Below the pieces are notes generated by a model. That model had not been told where the DNA came from. It made no database searches and worked only from the letters and a program-made list of their open reading frames with translations. A DNA stretch of 64,000 nucleotides from Escherichia phage MIZ6, in the sequence record OR192075.1; one strand, 5' to 3'. Within the stretch, counting starts at the first letter, position 1. Each line of letters opens with the position of its first letter. The translations under genes and the position numbers were made by a program. Below are positions 30,654 through 36,680 of the stretch, piece by piece.

Positions 30654-30721
30654 AAGTCATTCCCCCAGATTAAAAATATTCAGTTATATTTATAATCTGG
30701 GGCTTTATTTATGATTAACTC

Positions 30722-31318
30722 TTATTTGGTAGTACCGTCAATAAAATGTTTACGGCACACAGAGACATATTTATCCTCTGCACCAACTTCTATTTGAGCA
30801 CCATCGCGAATAACATTACCCTCTTTATCTACACGAAGGACCATTGTTGCTTTCTTGCCACAATGACAAATACCCTTCATTTCGACCAGTTTATCAGCAA
30901 ATGCCATTAATGCCGCAGATCCTTCAAATAGATTGCCCTGAAAGTCGGTGCGAAGGCCATAGCACAGTACAGGGATATTTGCATCATCGACAAGCGCACA
31001 CAAGCCTAAAACATGCTCTTTAGTCATAAATTGGGCTTCATCTACAAATACAGCATCAGGACGCCATCGATCCGGTCTACGCTTACCTAACGATTCACGA
31101 TAAACCAAATCGAAAAGATCATCCGATTCAGTGAAGGTGATCGCTGGAGCACTTAGGCCAATTCGGGAAACAACTTCACTTTCTGAATCTCGATTATCAA
31201 TCGCTGGCTTAAGAATTAATACTCGCATATCACGTTCGGTATAGTTATAAGCACTTTGTAACAGAGAAGTTGATTTGCCAGCGTTCATAGATGCATAGTA
31301 GAAATATAGTTGCGCCAT
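30722..31318 (-). CDS. tk: thymidine kinase
   Basis: 198 aa; P-loop MNAGKST, VFVDEAQF, C-terminal Zn motif CHCGKKA...CRKH typical of type II thymidine kinases. Confidence 0.9.
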   Translation of the reverse strand: MAQLYFYYASMNAGKSTSLLQSAYNYTERDMRVLILKPAIDNRDSESEVVSRIGLSAPAITFTESDDLFDLVYRESLGKRRPDRWRPDAVFVDEAQFMTKEHVLGLCALVDDANIPVLCYGLRTDFQGNLFEGSAALMAFADKLVEMKGICHCGKKATMVLRVDKEGNVIRDGAQIEVGAEDKYVSVCRKHFIDGTTK

Positions 31319-31611
31319 TAATTAATCTCCAAAAATCCAGCAAGACCTAAACCGATATAAGTCCAGATACAAAGGAAAAAGAAGCAAACACCCATAGCAA
31401 AGATAAATCCGCGTAGTGTCTTTGGATAACCTACCCAATATTCCCGACCATCTTCTAACCGGATCAGCTTATTTCCTTGAGAGTCCATATCAATTACAAC
31501 ATGTTTATTTCTGGATTGTAACAGATATTGCTTGACAATCTCAATACCCGCCATAATAACAATAACGAAATTGAAAGTCCACATAACAAGGTTAATGGTA
31601 GTCTCAAGCAT
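31318..31611 (-). CDS. predicted membrane protein
   Basis: 97 aa with two hydrophobic segments; overlaps the tk start. Confidence 0.4.
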   Translation of the reverse strand: MLETTINLVMWTFNFVIVIMAGIEIVKQYLLQSRNKHVVIDMDSQGNKLIRLEDGREYWVGYPKTLRGFIFAMGVCFFFLCIWTYIGLGLAGFLEIN

Positions 31612-31846
31612 TTTCTATAACCTCCACCCAATCAGGTGTTTCCTGAAAGACTCCTTCGCCTTCATGATGGTCGCAACCTTTATTGCTGCAATACATCCAC
31701 CAATCCCACATTCCCCACGGTAAACGCTGCATATCGTCGTTACAGCAAGTGAAGATGATAGGCCAACCACATCTAACACATCGGCAGTTTTCTTTCATGT
31801 GAGCGGTATTAGGCTTCTTCATAGATGACTCCAATATAATCGACAT
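31604..31846 (-). CDS. Cys-rich small protein (putative zinc-binding)
   Basis: 80 aa; CRCVRCGW...CCNDD...CSNKGCDHHEGEG. Confidence 0.4.
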   Translation of the reverse strand: MSIILESSMKKPNTAHMKENCRCVRCGWPIIFTCCNDDMQRLPWGMWDWWMYCSNKGCDHHEGEGVFQETPDWVEVIENA

Positions 31847-32049
31847 TTACATTTAGGGCAATGCGGTTCTTTAATATAATACCCGTCTGTCTTTGGAACA
31901 CTAACAGGAGCGGTTTTTATATTGTATTCGGTGAAACAACGAAAACAAGTTACGTTTTCTACAGACTGACGTTTCACCCAATCACCGGAATATAGATCAT
32001 TTTTATTTGTCATATTCAACCACCACAATGTTAATGTCTGGAGTAGCAA
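31819..32049 (-). CDS. Cys-rich small protein (zinc-ribbon-like)
   Basis: 76 aa; CFRCF...CPKCKC. Confidence 0.35.
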   Translation of the reverse strand: MLLQTLTLWWLNMTNKNDLYSGDWVKRQSVENVTCFRCFTEYNIKTAPVSVPKTDGYYIKEPHCPKCKCRLYWSHL

Positions 32050-32458
32050 TATTAATGATCTCTTCTACACATTCCCACTCAAGGCCACCGATACCGCAAC
32101 CGATTTTAGGAATATAGAAAGGCTGTGTAGCACCTTCAAAAACATCATTGAGAGTCTCAAATCCTTTCAGGATAGCACCATATTCAGCATTTGGACCCGG
32201 TCGGAATTGGGTATAGAGATTCACCCCGCACCAGTTATAACCATTAACTTGATGCGTCCAGACACTAAACCCACCCAGCTTTTCGACCTTACCGCGAGAA
32301 GTTTGCTTGTCAATCTCTAACGCTTGCGGGAACTCTTTCGCGATCTTTGCAGCAATACCAGCGCCCATAGTATGAAAACAATTACAACCATGAATTAAAT
32401 GACCGTTTCCTTGTTTAAACAGGGCGATGAGATCGCCCTTTACAGTATCAATAATCAT
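32003..32458 (-). CDS. macro domain protein, TARG1/OARD1/DarG-like (putative ADP-ribose hydrolase)
   Basis: 151 aa; GDLIALFKQGNGHLIHGCNCFHTMGAGIAAKIAKEFP and PKIGCGIGGLEWECV match the diagnostic motifs of the TARG1/OARD1 macro subfamily as recalled. Confidence 0.7.
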   Translation of the reverse strand: MIIDTVKGDLIALFKQGNGHLIHGCNCFHTMGAGIAAKIAKEFPQALEIDKQTSRGKVEKLGGFSVWTHQVNGYNWCGVNLYTQFRPGPNAEYGAILKGFETLNDVFEGATQPFYIPKIGCGIGGLEWECVEEIINIATPDINIVVVEYDK

Positions 32459-32473
32459 AATATAAACCTCTCA

Positions 32474-32833
32474 TTAGTCACGGGAAGACAACCCAGCCAT
32501 AAAACGGCTTAACAGTGTGTCGCGATAAGCAAAGCATAATTGCTTATCAGGAGCAGTATCACACAAGTTGCGTTTTGTTTTAGCAAAGCTGGCAATACTC
32601 AGATCCCATGCTCGATTTTTTCGTTTTTCGTCTCGACCTTGTTTGTATGCTTCATCAAGTTCGAGCGCGATAAAATCACTACACATGTTATCATCATCAC
32701 AGAAAGTTTTAATGATCTTTTTGTTGATCTCAAATCCTTTGTATTCAAACTTTGGATAAGGGCGCTCATTACTAGCAAGCGCACCAGCCGAGAACATCAT
32801 AGCAATCATAGCAATTATTGTCAACTTTTTCAT
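32474..32833 (-). CDS. secreted/periplasmic small protein
   Basis: 119 aa with N-terminal signal peptide MKKLTIIAMIAMMFSAGALA and several cysteines. Confidence 0.45.
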   Translation of the reverse strand: MKKLTIIAMIAMMFSAGALASNERPYPKFEYKGFEINKKIIKTFCDDDNMCSDFIALELDEAYKQGRDEKRKNRAWDLSIASFAKTKRNLCDTAPDKQLCFAYRDTLLSRFMAGLSSRD

Positions 32834-32840
32834 ATATTCC

Positions 32841-33431
32841 TCAATAGCGTTTAGTCTTAAGAATGCCTTTACTCTTTAGATGGTTAGCCTTTTTTAGTAC
32901 GTCATCAGCATAACCCAACCCGGCTTTATAGTTCCATCCAGCATTGTAAGAAGCTAGCGCGAGTCGGATATTACCGTTTCGAATATCCAGCCAGTATGCT
33001 AACTCATCCATCGCGTAGAATGCAGAAACCTCGCGATTCATGATAAAGTTGATAGTCTGGCGATCACTCATTTTAACACCGCGCTTTGCATTTTTCGCTT
33101 TCACCGTTTTAAGGTAATTTTGAAATAATCCATAAGCATGATGATTTTTCTTTGGTGCTAAGTTTGCACCCGCGCTTGATTCTTGCCATGCGATACCCGC
33201 CAGGATGTGACCTAAACCCTTTCCGTTATAGCGAATATTCGGATGGTACTTTTTCAACTTACCACTTTTCTCAAATTGCTCGCCGTATTGATAGGCGAAA
33301 TGTAAATTATCTAGTTGGTGTGCTGTAAAGTTGTCTATCGGCGCTTTTTTGATCGGTGCGCTAGTCGATGCGTGTGTAGCACCAACGGCTAGTGACAGAC
33401 TCAATACTATCGCTTTTAGAACTTTTAACAT
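32841..33431 (-). CDS. lytic transglycosylase (Slt-domain), secreted
   Basis: 196 aa; signal peptide; AWQESSAG ... GLFQ ... ASYNAGW catalytic-domain motifs of family 1 lytic transglycosylases. Confidence 0.7.
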   Translation of the reverse strand: MLKVLKAIVLSLSLAVGATHASTSAPIKKAPIDNFTAHQLDNLHFAYQYGEQFEKSGKLKKYHPNIRYNGKGLGHILAGIAWQESSAGANLAPKKNHHAYGLFQNYLKTVKAKNAKRGVKMSDRQTINFIMNREVSAFYAMDELAYWLDIRNGNIRLALASYNAGWNYKAGLGYADDVLKKANHLKSKGILKTKRY

Positions 33432-33517
33432 TAATTTCTCCTGTTTGGCTTAACTTTCTGATTTCATAATATAGCCCTATCACCAGAAAGTCAAGCATTA
33501 TTTTTAACCAATTTCCA

Positions 33518-33940
33518 TTATTGGTCTACCTTCAAAACAACCGCCGACATTTTACCCGCCAGTCGTTTTGGATTCTCTATAATCATTCGGCAGCATAGAC
33601 CGTGATACGGCTTACCCTCTTCTATTAGATCTACTGTCATCCCGATCCACATGTTACCGTCAGTAATTTCTAATCGATTAGGTCGGTCTTCCATTTTCAG
33701 GAAGTCGAAGATCTCCGGCAAACGAGTTTCTATCTTATTGAATAGTTCCATTGTCTTATGTTCATCGATATGACGATCGGTTAGACGGTCGATCATATGC
33801 GGACTAAAGCGAATGAAAATATACTCACCATAACCATCATTCAAGCACTTTTCTTTGATCTGCGCATTGGTTTTGCGCATTTCGGTTTCGAAGAATCTAC
33901 GCAGCTTACTACGGCGAACATGTACGTTAATTGTTTCCAT
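33518..33940 (-). CDS. regB: RegB site-specific endoribonuclease
   Basis: METINVHVRRSKLRRFFETE...PNRLEITDGNMWIGMTV...CCRMIIENPKRLAGKMSAVVLK parallels T4 RegB as recalled; start set at METINV. Confidence 0.85.
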   Translation of the reverse strand: METINVHVRRSKLRRFFETEMRKTNAQIKEKCLNDGYGEYIFIRFSPHMIDRLTDRHIDEHKTMELFNKIETRLPEIFDFLKMEDRPNRLEITDGNMWIGMTVDLIEEGKPYHGLCCRMIIENPKRLAGKMSAVVLKVDQ

Positions 33941-33944
33941 TTTA

Positions 33945-34280
33945 TTATCCTTTCTTAAACAAATTGCGAAGCCAGTATACAAACGGGATTTCTTTAAACT
34001 TGAATTTCTCTATAGTTAATTCTTTAGTAGCAAGATGAATACCATAAGCATCATGTGTCACGATATGCCATTTTCTATAGTCCAAATGTGAACAACCGTC
34101 TGGATCTAGGTTAATAAGAGTTTCTCGCTCACTAGGATTATTTTTCCACAATTTTGTAATAGGATCGCACATAATTCGACCTAGCGTACCATGAATAATC
34201 TCACAACGGTAAAGTTTTCCAGCAGTGAGATAGGCGCACCCGTCATAGTCGGTATAAACAAACACTTCTTTAACACTCAT
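33945..34280 (-). CDS. hypothetical protein
   Basis: Start set at MSVKEVFVY after AGGAGTATTAAA; promoter at 34309-34337. Confidence 0.4.
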   Translation of the reverse strand: MSVKEVFVYTDYDGCAYLTAGKLYRCEIIHGTLGRIMCDPITKLWKNNPSERETLINLDPDGCSHLDYRKWHIVTHDAYGIHLATKELTIEKFKFKEIPFVYWLRNLFKKG

Positions 34281-34308
34281 TTTAATACTCCTTTGTTTCG
34301 ATGGGGGT

Positions 34309-34337
34309 ATATTACTACCCCCGTTTTGTTGTGTCAA
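34309..34337 (-). promoter_or_regulatory. early-type sigma70 promoter with hairpin around the -10
   Basis: Minus-strand TTGACA, 17 bp, TAATAT inside GGGGGTAGTAATATACCCCC; leader CATCGAAAC. Confidence 0.5.
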
Positions 34338-34598
34338 CTACTTTTTCAAGATTTTTTTAATTGCGTTCCAAAGACCTTTATTCTCAGGTTGTTTTGGTTC
34401 TTCGATCAGTGTCCATGTTCGACCGTCTAAGTGTGCACAATTTTTAAGACAAATAAAAATCTGATGTCCCTTATCATCACGGATATAACCACTATTCGCA
34501 AATCTTTCATGTGGTGTATATTCATACAGTGTATTTGGTGTAATATACTTGCGGTTACTATAAGGTGTCATCACATACATCATGGTACTAACTCCCAT
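34338..34598 (-). CDS. hypothetical protein (tandem paralogue A)
   Basis: 86 aa; shares YxxTPxxxY...GYIxDDxG...CAHL with the next ORF. Confidence 0.4.
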   Translation of the reverse strand: MGVSTMMYVMTPYSNRKYITPNTLYEYTPHERFANSGYIRDDKGHQIFICLKNCAHLDGRTWTLIEEPKQPENKGLWNAIKKILKK

Positions 34599-34774
34599 TT
34601 ATCACCGCGAAGATGAGCACATCCACCATCAAGAAGGATCGTAATACGAACACCCGCATCATCTTCAATATACCCGATAGTCGGTGGATGTTCGTCGTCT
34701 CGTGCCGGGGTAAAATCATACATCTTTCCAGGCGTAATATCTTGTCCTTTATTGCTATTGGTATAAACTTGCAT
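34580..34774 (-). CDS. hypothetical protein (tandem paralogue B)
   Basis: 64 aa; ITPGKMYDFTP...IGYIEDDAGVRI...GGCAHLRGDKWEL mirrors the downstream paralogue. Confidence 0.4.
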   Translation of the reverse strand: MQVYTNSNKGQDITPGKMYDFTPARDDEHPPTIGYIEDDAGVRITILLDGGCAHLRGDKWELVP

Positions 34775-34795
34775 TTTCTTAATCTCCTATATTAA

Positions 34796-35494
34796 CTAAC
34801 CACGGGTATAGTGTTCCAGAACAACTGTCAGATGAATATATTCTAATAGATCTTTCCAAAAGTCAACATCTGGTTCTTCCGGCATACCGTTTTTCTTTGC
34901 CTCTTCACGCGCGAGTTTAACACGCTCGTAGAGATCTTTCAATTCTTCCCGCACATTATCAAAGGTTCTTTCTCCTAACTTACACGCTAAAATAGAAGAA
35001 CGTCGCGCGAGCGGGAATTGTAGATCACCAGTTTGATAGATTTCAAGTAGCTGATAACCAACACGCAGAGCATGAGAAAGATCTTTCCAGTTACTGAAAT
35101 ACTTTTCAGATTTTGCTACCTGCTTTTTGAGATAACCAGACAAACCCCACATCCCAACATGATAGAATTTATCGCGATGTGTTCGGATGTATTCCCATTC
35201 TCTGGAGGATTCAATCAACATGTTACTAGGAGCGTGCACCATGTCAATAGCGCCGATATCGCCTTTACATGCCAGATTGATAAACCGTTTTAGACTGAAC
35301 ATATTAACGTCAATGTCGTCTTTGGTGTTCTTGATCCCTTGACCGCTAGTGCTTTGATCATAGTGTTCTTTCATCGATCCTAAGATAATTTCTTTCGCAG
35401 TCGGAACAAAGATACCACGATAATCTTTATCGGAGTTTTCAGTATCAAGGCCGTATAAGTGAGATCCGAAGACCATTTTAACCATTGTATGCAT
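34796..35494 (-). CDS. nucleotidyltransferase (Pol-beta superfamily, MNT-like)
   Basis: 232 aa; N-terminal VFGSHLYGLDTENSDKDYRGIF fits the GS...D.D signature of Pol-beta-type NTases; remainder helical. Confidence 0.55.
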   Translation of the reverse strand: MHTMVKMVFGSHLYGLDTENSDKDYRGIFVPTAKEIILGSMKEHYDQSTSGQGIKNTKDDIDVNMFSLKRFINLACKGDIGAIDMVHAPSNMLIESSREWEYIRTHRDKFYHVGMWGLSGYLKKQVAKSEKYFSNWKDLSHALRVGYQLLEIYQTGDLQFPLARRSSILACKLGERTFDNVREELKDLYERVKLAREEAKKNGMPEEPDVDFWKDLLEYIHLTVVLEHYTRG

Positions 35495-35538
35495 AATTAA
35501 ACCCTCAATTGATTAAGAGATTACATCATAACATCATA

Positions 35539-35570
35539 AAAAGAAAAAGCCAACCCTTTTCGGATTGGCT
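35539..35570 (-). terminator. rho-independent terminator after grcA
   Basis: Minus-strand hairpin AGCCAATCCgaaaaGGGTTGGCT followed by TTTTTCTTTTT. Confidence 0.55.
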
Positions 35571-35580
35571 TGATGAAAAA

Positions 35581-35997
35581 TTAGAGAGATTCGGTAAAGG
35601 TACGCGCGATAACGTCACGCTGCTGGTCTGGAGTCAGACTATTGAAGCGCACTGCGTAACCAGAAACGCGAATTGTAAGCTGCGGGTACTTCTCAGGATG
35701 TTCAACAGCGTCCAGCAACATTTCTCGTAACAATACGTTAACATTCAAATGCTGACCACCTTCGACAACCGGAGCACCATTATCTACAATCACCGGACGG
35801 AAGCTAGTTGTGTGCAGTGCCAGCGAATCGACGTCTTCTGCGGTGATCACATGGTCTTCTGCGAAAGTTTTACTAACAATTACTTTAGCGCCGATCAGGG
35901 CTTTCGGTTCGGATACCAGAATCATAGGCGCGAAATGTCCACCGATAATAGTACCTTTATGCTCACCTTTCATGATTTGAATTGCTTTAAATTCCAT
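35581..35997 (-). CDS. grcA: autonomous glycyl radical cofactor (GrcA/YfiD-like)
   Basis: 138 aa; C-terminus [59 protein letters not shown] is near-identical to enterobacterial GrcA as recalled, including the glycyl-radical RVSGYAV motif. Confidence 0.85.
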
Positions 35998-36132
35998 AAA
36001 TCACCTCTTATAGATCAGGACGTTCGTCATTAATTTTACCAACCAAAACACCATAGAGTTTATCAGGTTGGACTTTACGATTCTTTTTAATTGTAGCACG
36101 AAATCGACGAGCTACGCTATCTTTATTTTTCA

Positions 36133-36618
36133 TTAGTTGATACCTAAGCCAATGAAAATAGGTTGGTCTTCTACATTACCCATCCCAACACTAAGTCGAT
36201 TTACTTCTAAAAACTGCAATACGCTGTCAGTAAATCCGCGCATGGTAGTATCTAGGATAAAAATTGTTTTGTCAAGACTACGACCTCGCCATGTGATCGG
36301 ATTCAGGAAAGTTCGGATCGACGTACAATCTACATTTGAAATATTTACATTTTCACCGCGACCGCGATCTCGGATCGTTTTGGCATGTTCCCGCGTCGTT
36401 GAAACGATAAAGACACTATAGCCTTTTCTCGTATAATGGTCATATAACTTGATTGTAGCGTCTGTATGCCCTGTCTGACGTCCTAAATTGATTGAGACAA
36501 TGGAATCTAGGTCATCAGCAAAATTGCGTCGCTTACGACGTTCTATGATGCCATTTACGGCAGATACACACGCAGCATAAATCAAATCTTTACTTTCTAA
36601 TTTTACATCAATATTCAT
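36133..36618 (-). CDS. hypothetical protein
   Basis: 161 aa ORF downstream of the endolysin. Confidence 0.4.
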   Translation of the reverse strand: MNIDVKLESKDLIYAACVSAVNGIIERRKRRNFADDLDSIVSINLGRQTGHTDATIKLYDHYTRKGYSVFIVSTTREHAKTIRDRGRGENVNISNVDCTSIRTFLNPITWRGRSLDKTIFILDTTMRGFTDSVLQFLEVNRLSVGMGNVEDQPIFIGLGIN

Positions 36619-36680
36619 GGTAAAGTCTCCAGTGAACGGGGAGAGATCCTTAGATTGTCTCCCCGTTGATGGTTAATATT

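Follow-up and report, generated by a model that had tools for sequence, protein, structure and literature searches.

We analysed a 64,000-nucleotide stretch of Escherichia phage MIZ6 (sequence record OR192075.1), referred to below as the window, and followed up a gene that occupies positions 34,796 to 35,494 on its minus strand. The window derives from a Krischvirus, that is, an RB49-like relative of T4. The gene is an open reading frame (ORF) with an ATG start, confirmed in the ORF list and in the raw sequence, and it encodes a nucleotidyltransferase (NTase) of 232 amino acids (aa) which sequence comparison identifies as the Krischvirus ortholog of T4 NrdC.11, a member of the RlaP family. It lies in a T4-like early region in which all genes are on the minus strand, in the order endolysin, vs.8, vs.6, nrdC.11, three small paralogous ORFs, regB, vs.1, vs, tk.4 and tk. 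A preliminary description, drawn from the letters alone, had announced a Pol-beta NTase with a GS...DxD motif at this place, next to grcA and following its terminator. The ORF was exact and the motif is real, with 98 to 100% conservation; the neighbour upstream is GrcA-like, and an intrinsic terminator does separate both genes.

The 2.7 kb around the gene match Escherichia phages MIZ2 and MIZ3 at 100% identity and 56 further Krischvirus (RB49-like) genomes at 90–99%. The RefSeq counterpart in RB49 is nrdC.11 (RB49p098), labelled ‘nucleotidyltransferase’, and MIZ2 carries the identical label. At the protein level, the window protein is 100% identical to a protein cluster with 149 members (P0001), and 57 of the 58 Krischvirus records searched by tblastn encode it with at least 99% identity. 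Codon differences are overwhelmingly silent, with synonymous to nonsynonymous ratios of 17:1 against RB49 and 14:0 against GEC-3S, and the gene is under purifying selection.

Both the gene and its family were already known, and our result is the re-identification of an annotated gene with nothing new at either level. [quoted passage not shown] Regarding the possibility raised beforehand that this is a known conserved T4-like protein of established function, the first part holds (it is NrdC.11) and the second does not, the function of the phage protein being deduced from its relatives. Database labels are uneven: many GenBank records call NrdC.11 orthologs ‘thioredoxin’ or ‘glutaredoxin’, and one calls them ‘HNH homing endonuclease’. 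Such labels are wrong for a PF10127 protein, the redoxin ones having apparently been copied from the gene name nrdC.

Family membership, active site and predicted fold

The window protein matches the Pfam family PF10127 RlaP (‘RNA repair pathway DNA polymerase beta family’) with 53.6 bits, against a cutoff of 23 (E = 3.4e-14), in a continuous alignment that places residues 7–191 on profile positions 24–198 of 249. It also matches the PHROG 388 group (phrog_388, ‘nucleotidyltransferase’) with E = 2e-79, and T4 NrdC.11 by BLASTP with E = 1e-50. Judged by these sequence scores, the family match is far beyond chance and, by best match, the protein is the ortholog of T4 NrdC.11 (T4p095, NP_049709.1) within PHROG 388. 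A tblastn search retrieved relatives from 1619 phage records; most of these are T4-like phages that infect enterobacteria, Aeromonas or Acinetobacter, and myco-, Gordonia and Bacillus phages are represented too. An exhaustive HMMER search returned 3575 clusters (50% identity) at E <= 1e-3. The subfamily is a distant one, since a canonical member scores 226 bits on the same RlaP model. No NCBIfam model matched the protein, and querying PDB sequences with either the protein itself or a family profile gave nothing relevant and no PfRlaP chain. PADLOC gave no meaningful match (one weak unrelated match, E 0.032), which argues against an NTase from a defence system.

Conservation was computed over the 151 closest cluster representatives. 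The peptide quoted in the preliminary description, VFGSHLYGLDTENSDKDYRGIF, corresponds to residues 8–29 and holds the first part of the active site, with G10 present in 100%, S11 in 98%, and D22 and D24 each in 99% of the representatives. Further along, N56 (97%), D60 (97%) and D62 (98%) are conserved, as are the basic residues K137 (99%), H141 (99%), R144 (100%) and K172 (98%). In a profile-profile alignment, G10-S11, D22-x-D24 and D62 fall on the invariant G37-S38, D49-x-D51 and D88 of canonical RlaP. The protein thus shows what defines a Pol-beta NTase, namely the hG[GS] and [DE]x[DE] motif, a carboxylate on a later strand and an alpha/beta core. Loss of the catalytic acids on alignment, which had been named as grounds for abandoning the assignment, did not occur: the carboxylates D22, D24 and D62 are intact, and the enzyme is predicted to be catalytically competent. 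According to these results, it is very probably an active NTase of the RlaP family.

The AlphaFold2 model of the protein (predicted local distance difference test score, pLDDT, 89.7; predicted template modelling score, pTM, 0.86) agrees with an independently made BFVD model of the identical protein (template modelling score, TM, 0.96). It contains an N-terminal NTase core, a helical domain (residues 116–201) and a terminal helix (210–229). The crystal structure of PfRlaP consists of an N-terminal NTase domain, a C-terminal helical domain and a final helix packed back on the NTase domain (PMC12776372), and the order of secondary-structure elements in our model fits this published description. 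Searches of the PDB by fold returned NTases for every match with E <= 0.001. Solved structures gave remote matches only, and no PfRlaP chain was among the 50–60 matches listed per search.

The preliminary description had suggested minimal nucleotidyltransferases (MNT), antibiotic NTases or cGAS/DncV-like enzymes as the family, and the protein falls in PF10127/RlaP instead. The MNT of HEPN-MNT modules was rejected: the window protein, at 232 aa, has its own C-terminal helical domain and, as the description had itself observed, there is no HEPN partner, no neighbouring ORF matching HEPN or any other Pfam family. The sole MNT entry among the 50 Foldseek matches listed stands at rank 45 (E = 0.095). 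No CD-NTase, cGAS or DncV was found among the 50–60 matches listed per PDB fold search, nor was there a relevant PADLOC match. The close similarity in fold and sequence, including the KNTase C-terminal domain, that would mark an aminoglycoside or lincosamide nucleotidyltransferase (ANT, LinB) was not seen.

These comparisons bear on the idea that the enzyme nucleotidylylates a protein or a small molecule, as do the MNT antitoxins, which AMPylate HEPN RNases, and the ANT enzymes; in a phage it might, for instance, neutralise a host defence RNase of the HEPN type. We consider this improbable. Apart from the low rank of MNT, the TM-scores are 0.36–0.41 at 11–13% identity, HEPN matches reach the same Z as unrelated helix bundles, no match to the MNT or ANT families appears at the sequence level, and no labelling of E. 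coli proteins was seen with a characterised RlaP (PMC12776372).

The best match among solved structures was Hailong HalB (PDB 9dbh/9dbj), which synthesises oligo-dA primed on a protein and has the HalA channel as its partner (PMC13434031). One could argue that the phage enzyme makes a nucleotide signal or decoy, either a HalB-like protein-primed oligodeoxyadenylate that keeps the HalA channel closed or a CD-NTase-like oligonucleotide directed against immune signalling, along the lines of a suggestion in the preliminary description. HalB is about as large as the window protein, likewise joins an NTase to a helical domain, and yields a product that is a known target in phage-host conflict (PMC13434031). 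Still, we regard such a role as very improbable, given that no PDB chain or PADLOC defence model is matched in sequence, that the fold matches listed include no CD-NTase, that a characterised RlaP did not extend DNA (PMC12776372), and that the bacterial neighbourhoods point to RNA repair, as described below.

RNA repair as the proposed role

The activity of two Pseudomonas RlaPs, from P. fluorescens and P. aeruginosa, was described in a December 2025 preprint (PMC12776372). These enzymes add one or two nucleoside monophosphates (NMPs) to RNA 3'-OH ends, prefer Mn2+ and do not act on DNA or protein. A cleaved-tRNA mimic is their preferred substrate, and they raise the aminoacylation of repaired tRNA that had lost a nucleotide; the activity is unspecific for the nucleoside triphosphate (NTP), and not only cleaved tRNA but also rRNA and intact tRNA are labelled. 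In the authors' proposal, RlaP is the antidote against nucleases such as RloC, by which tRNA is cut and a nucleotide excised, and they place T4 NrdC.11 in the RlaP family as a separate sequence cluster (PMC12776372). Iyer et al. (2021, PMC7824862) state that RlaP is distributed among jumbo phages in parallel with RNA ligases.

We searched one genome per bacterial or archaeal species with a profile built from phage-type proteins, which gave 80 loci, 73 of them with a recognisable target ORF. ORFs were called at each locus, neighbours were clustered, and cluster representatives within 6 kb of the target were annotated with Pfam. The relatives at these 73 bacterial loci are 24–50% identical to the window protein. 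RNA-repair genes were found at 18 of them, where the relatives are 30–48% identical to the window protein and of the long form wherever complete (311–376 aa). A second, canonical RlaP (226 bits) is present at ten loci, and in eight it directly follows the long-form NrdC.11-like gene (L014, L029, L033, L037, L042, L050, L074 and L076). RtcB was found at seven loci, Ro60/TROVE-vWA at five and a CCA-adding/PolyA_pol enzyme at four; bacterial Pnkp kinase-phosphatase-ligase with an RNA ligase, a Hen1 fragment and a DEDD exonuclease were each found at one. The clusters that hold the pair of NrdC.11-like and canonical RlaP genes often also hold RtcB, Ro60, Pnkp-ligase or an RNA ligase. At three further loci a gene for an HD-domain protein is adjacent. 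Genomes typically carry at most a couple of copies of RtcB, so that seven among about 970 neighbouring ORFs is far above chance, as judged against this usual copy number rather than a computed control. The neighbourhood with RNA ligases, the property from which RlaP took its name, is thus found among the cellular relatives of the NrdC.11 subfamily. Beside the short-form homologs from Bacillaceae (25–30% identity), repair genes did not recur.

The classic example of tRNA repair that counters anticodon nucleases comes from T4-like phages. Both pseT (Pnkp) and rnlA (Rnl1) are present in RB49, and we found no tRNA genes in RB49 and none in the 64-kb window, hence an RB49-type phage relies wholly on host tRNAs. 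We propose, with a probability of roughly 0.6, that the role of the enzyme is to restore nucleotides on cleaved host tRNA before ligation by Pnkp and Rnl1. T4 mutants lacking the segment from nrdC.11 to mobD.3 were recovered in a genome-reduction study (PMC9825161), so nrdC.11 can be lost under laboratory conditions, which is what one would expect of an accessory gene for counter-defence. During infection, the substrates would be host tRNAs from which an anticodon nuclease of the host, in cleaving them, has also taken out a nucleotide (RloC-type). The enzyme would transfer one or two NMPs from NTPs, without a template, to the 3'-OH of the broken RNA, with K137, H141, R144 and K172 lining the RNA side of the cleft, and once the nucleotide had been put back, the phage Pnkp and RNA ligase 1 would reseal a functional tRNA. 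That the substrate is RNA, how many nucleotides are added, which metal is used and the part played in counter-defence are all inferred.

The same chemistry could also serve regulation or host shut-off, with short non-templated tails on RNA 3' ends altering RNA stability or blocking function, just as terminal uridylyl and adenylyl transferases tail RNAs and MenT-type toxins extend the acceptor ends of tRNAs. The lack of NTP specificity and the labelling of rRNA and intact tRNA measured for RlaP (PMC12776372) would suit such a role, as would the RNA-directed early genes on the same strand (regB, vs and the tk.4 macro domain), the absence of a ligase beside the NTase gene, and the terminal uridylyltransferases that appear as weak fold matches (E 0.04–0.1). 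We find shut-off doubtful, since the bacterial relatives lie in RtcB/Ro60/Pnkp repair operons and not in toxin or decay contexts, since damaging tRNAs would be costly to RB49-type phages, which depend fully on those of the host, and since Pfam reveals no partner antitoxin or immunity gene among the neighbours.

Several points weigh against restoration of host tRNA as the role. The characterised RlaP enzymes belong to another sequence cluster of the family, and hhalign connects phage-type and canonical RlaP weakly (probability 18%, NTase core only); the activity we ascribe to phage NrdC.11-type proteins is carried over from characterised bacterial RlaP. The neighbourhood that named the family is not found in the phage, where the neighbours are vs.6, small ORFs and regB; in RB49, pseT and rnlA lie about 75 kb from nrdC.11 and no ligase or kinase is adjacent. 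Similarly, no RNA-repair genes lie beside the homologs in the temperate mycobacteriophage DrSeegs and in Bacillus phage BMBsp2. There is also the matter of an insert of about 105 aa, carried by 146 of the 151 closest representatives and by every complete bacterial relative beside RNA-repair genes; five representatives are short, the window protein included, and without the insert the Krischvirus protein may handle its substrate differently. The main reason for not transferring the measured activity uncritically is the usual pairing with canonical RlaP in bacteria, which suggests that the two paralogs are not redundant; the NrdC.11 type may do something other than what was measured for RlaP.

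A distinct job of this kind could concern a different nucleotide, a different end or RNA, or the chemistry that prepares an end for the ligase, and the insert-less architecture together with the bacterial two-NTase operons suggests that the NrdC.11 type may serve a separate function. Taken further, the NrdC.11 type would be a functionally distinct RlaP paralog, the phage copy a dedicated counter-defence against nucleotide-excising anticodon nucleases, and the Krischvirus form a minimal version that occurs in nature and recognises its substrate differently; a remoter variant would be a HalB-like oligonucleotide decoy. We put this forward tentatively, as an unlikely extension. For tRNA restoration, the phage would offer a test case of whether T4-like tRNA repair can cope with nucleotide-excising nucleases such as RloC.

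Expression and neighbouring genes

The positions of the gene, its parts and the features around it are collected in Table 1. The terminator that follows vs.6 has a folding free energy of -15.6 kcal/mol (z = -4.8), and the same terminator was predicted in RB49 by TransTerm (Nolan 2006, supplementary file 5, PMC1524935). Overlapping it we found one weak promoter candidate, whose -35 element falls within the terminator's descending arm; the promoter scan of this region gave 17 sites against 11.9 expected. The candidate is conserved in three Krischviruses, including RB49 and GEC-3S, but with identity of about 99% along the entire spacer this conservation is uninformative. It resembles the early-promoter consensus of RB49 only loosely and is missing from the published list of RB49 early promoters, which has no site between Pe:57746 and Pe:52389, the former lying about 4.2 kb upstream of the gene, at roughly 39,700 in the window.

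A middle or late promoter, as had been guessed in the preliminary description, found no backing. No T4-type late promoter, TATAAATA, occurs on the coding strand from 30687 to 40860, which covers about 5 kb upstream, and RB49 has neither motA nor a middle-promoter (Mot-box) consensus (PMC1524935). Expression is probably early, through read-through of the vs.6 terminator, from the weak sigma70-like promoter, or both. The 64- and 86-aa ORFs directly downstream are probably transcribed as one unit with the NTase, as the early promoter predicted next lies at about 34309–34337.

Table 1. Features at and around the nrdC.11 locus in the window.
Feature	Position	Strand	Evidence
Coding sequence, Krischvirus ortholog of T4 nrdC.11, RlaP-family (PF10127) Pol-beta NTase, short form without the T4-type insert	34796..35494	-	Pfam, PHROG, nucleotide and protein comparison, RB49/MIZ2 annotation
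Shine-Dalgarno GAGGG, 7 nt 5' of the ATG	35502..35506	-	Direct sequence reading
Catalytic motif G10-S11 ... D22-x-D24	35423..35467	-	Conservation and alignment to canonical RlaP
D62 codon, predicted third metal-binding carboxylate, start of strand 62-67, motif NTKDDID	35309..35311	-	D in 148/151, E in 3/151
N-terminal NTase core, residues 1 to ~112, strands 2-9, 24-30, 44-48, 62-67	35159..35494	-	AlphaFold2 model
C-terminal all-helical domain and terminal helix, residues 116-229, with basic K137, H141, R144, K172	34808..35149	-	AlphaFold2 model and conservation
Intrinsic terminator of the vs.6/GrcA-like gene, 10-bp stem, 5-nt loop, U5CU5 tail	35537..35571 (stem 35547-35571)	-	Folding; annotated in GEC-3S, predicted in RB49
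Weak candidate sigma70/early promoter TTGGCT-17-TATGAT, extended -10 TG at -15/-14	35525..35553	-	9/12 consensus positions
Upstream gene, vs.6 ortholog, GrcA-like glycyl-radical protein, 138 aa	35581..35997	-	Pfam, NCBIfam, T4 comparison
Pair of small paralogous ORFs (64 and 86 aa) immediately following the NTase gene	34338..34774	-	ORF list, PHROG, promoter scan
regB endoribonuclease	33518-33940	-	
vs valyl-tRNA synthetase modifier	32474-32833	-	
tk.4 macro-domain ‘phosphatase’	32003-32458	-	

The product of the upstream gene matches Gly_radical with 1.5e-16 and TIGR04365 with 133.8 bits, below the cutoff of 170. It is 58% identical to T4 vs.6 and 18 aa longer, with the extra residues before the glycyl-radical segment. 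On the other side of the NTase lie three paralogous small ORFs, all on the minus strand, of 64 (34580-34774), 86 (34338-34598) and 130 aa (33945-34337). They belong to PHROG 6261/15978, have no Pfam match and share the motif C-x-H-L-[DR]-x(2,3)-W. The 64-aa ORF matches only 58 Krischvirus records and evolves faster than the NTase, with synonymous to nonsynonymous ratios of 6:4 (RB49) and 5:3 (GEC-3S) compared with 17:1 for the NTase against RB49. The small ORFs occupy the slot after vs.6 which T4 fills with vs.5, vs.4 and vs.3.

The RNA-directed genes tk.4, vs and regB lie on the strand of the NTase within 3.5 kb (32003-33940). At 42696-43160, also on the minus strand, a gene called ‘RNA ligase’ in MIZ2 and RB49 is the ortholog of T4 57B. 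We take 57B to be the 2H-family anti-CBASS phosphodiesterase Acb1, in which case ‘RNA ligase’ is probably a misnomer. Among more distant homologs, gp35 of DrSeegs (L005 4968-5714) stands beside an Lsr2-like gene, near an integrase and immunity cassette and with an NrdH-like gene about 0.7 kb downstream, and the BMBsp2 homolog (L006 4950-5711) lies just downstream of the genes for ribonucleotide reductase alpha and beta. Together with the nrdC cluster of T4, this makes a loose, recurring proximity to ribonucleotide reductase and redoxin genes, which may be coincidence.

Comparison with known systems

Among solved structures, Hailong HalB (9dbh/9dbj) is similar to the window protein in size and in its combination of an NTase with a helical domain, whereas the window protein has neither a HalA partner nor a sequence relationship with HalB, and identity with HalB was rejected on both counts. 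The bacterial RlaP of PF10127 belongs to the same Pfam family and aligns at the three Asp, and its published order of NTase domain, helical domain and terminal helix fits our model; the window gene is phage-encoded and lies outside any RtcB/RtcA operon. The bacterial long-form NrdC.11-like NTases (for example those at L037, L033, L042 and L074) have the same motifs and fall in the same sequence clade as the window protein; they are paired with canonical RlaP and an RNA ligase in an operon, while the phage has a single short copy and no adjacent repair genes.

Also among the closest known systems is T4 nrdC.11, with its orthologs in Straboviridae; it is likewise an early-region gene, on the same strand and annotated ‘nucleotidyltransferase’. 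Its genome position is different, between mobD and nrdC.10, whereas the Krischvirus copy lies between vs.6 and regB. T4 NrdC.11 has 336 aa compared with 232 in the window protein, with which it shares the GS, DxD and NTKDDID motifs as well as the helical domain at the C terminus; both ends align, and a gap of about 105 residues opens after residue ~130. In a modelled T4-type protein, these residues are predicted to fold into a compact alpha/beta module with three helices and five strands, at a pLDDT of about 70–90. At the position of D60 of the window protein (D in 97% of the relatives), the T4 reference has N. The translation of T4 nrdC.11 (L007 5436-6446) holds an X, which reflects an ambiguous base in the record. 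For a T4-type protein the match to the Pfam RlaP model stops at the insertion point, while that of the window protein runs on continuously, and the Krischvirus protein thereby has the generic RlaP architecture.

By pairwise distance, the five short forms stand in at least three separate places among the long forms, which suggests that they arose by independent losses of the insert. A metagenomic contig (L088) encodes a 234-aa relative, 57% identical to the window protein, in the order endolysin, vs.8-like, Gly_radical and NTase, the same as in the window. The short form and its adjacency to vs.6 hence predate the cultured Krischvirus group. In this Krischvirus-like contig, an HNH/NUMOD4 homing-endonuclease gene (L088 3951-4547) lies between the Gly_radical gene and the short-form NTase, and in T4, mobD (L007 6430-7209) overlaps the start of nrdC.11. 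A homing-endonuclease gene is therefore found directly 5' of nrdC.11 in two separate lineages, that of T4 and that of the metagenomic contig. The Krischvirus protein is compact, free of the insert and strongly conserved, and its comparison with T4 NrdC.11 could reveal what the insert of about 105 aa contributes.

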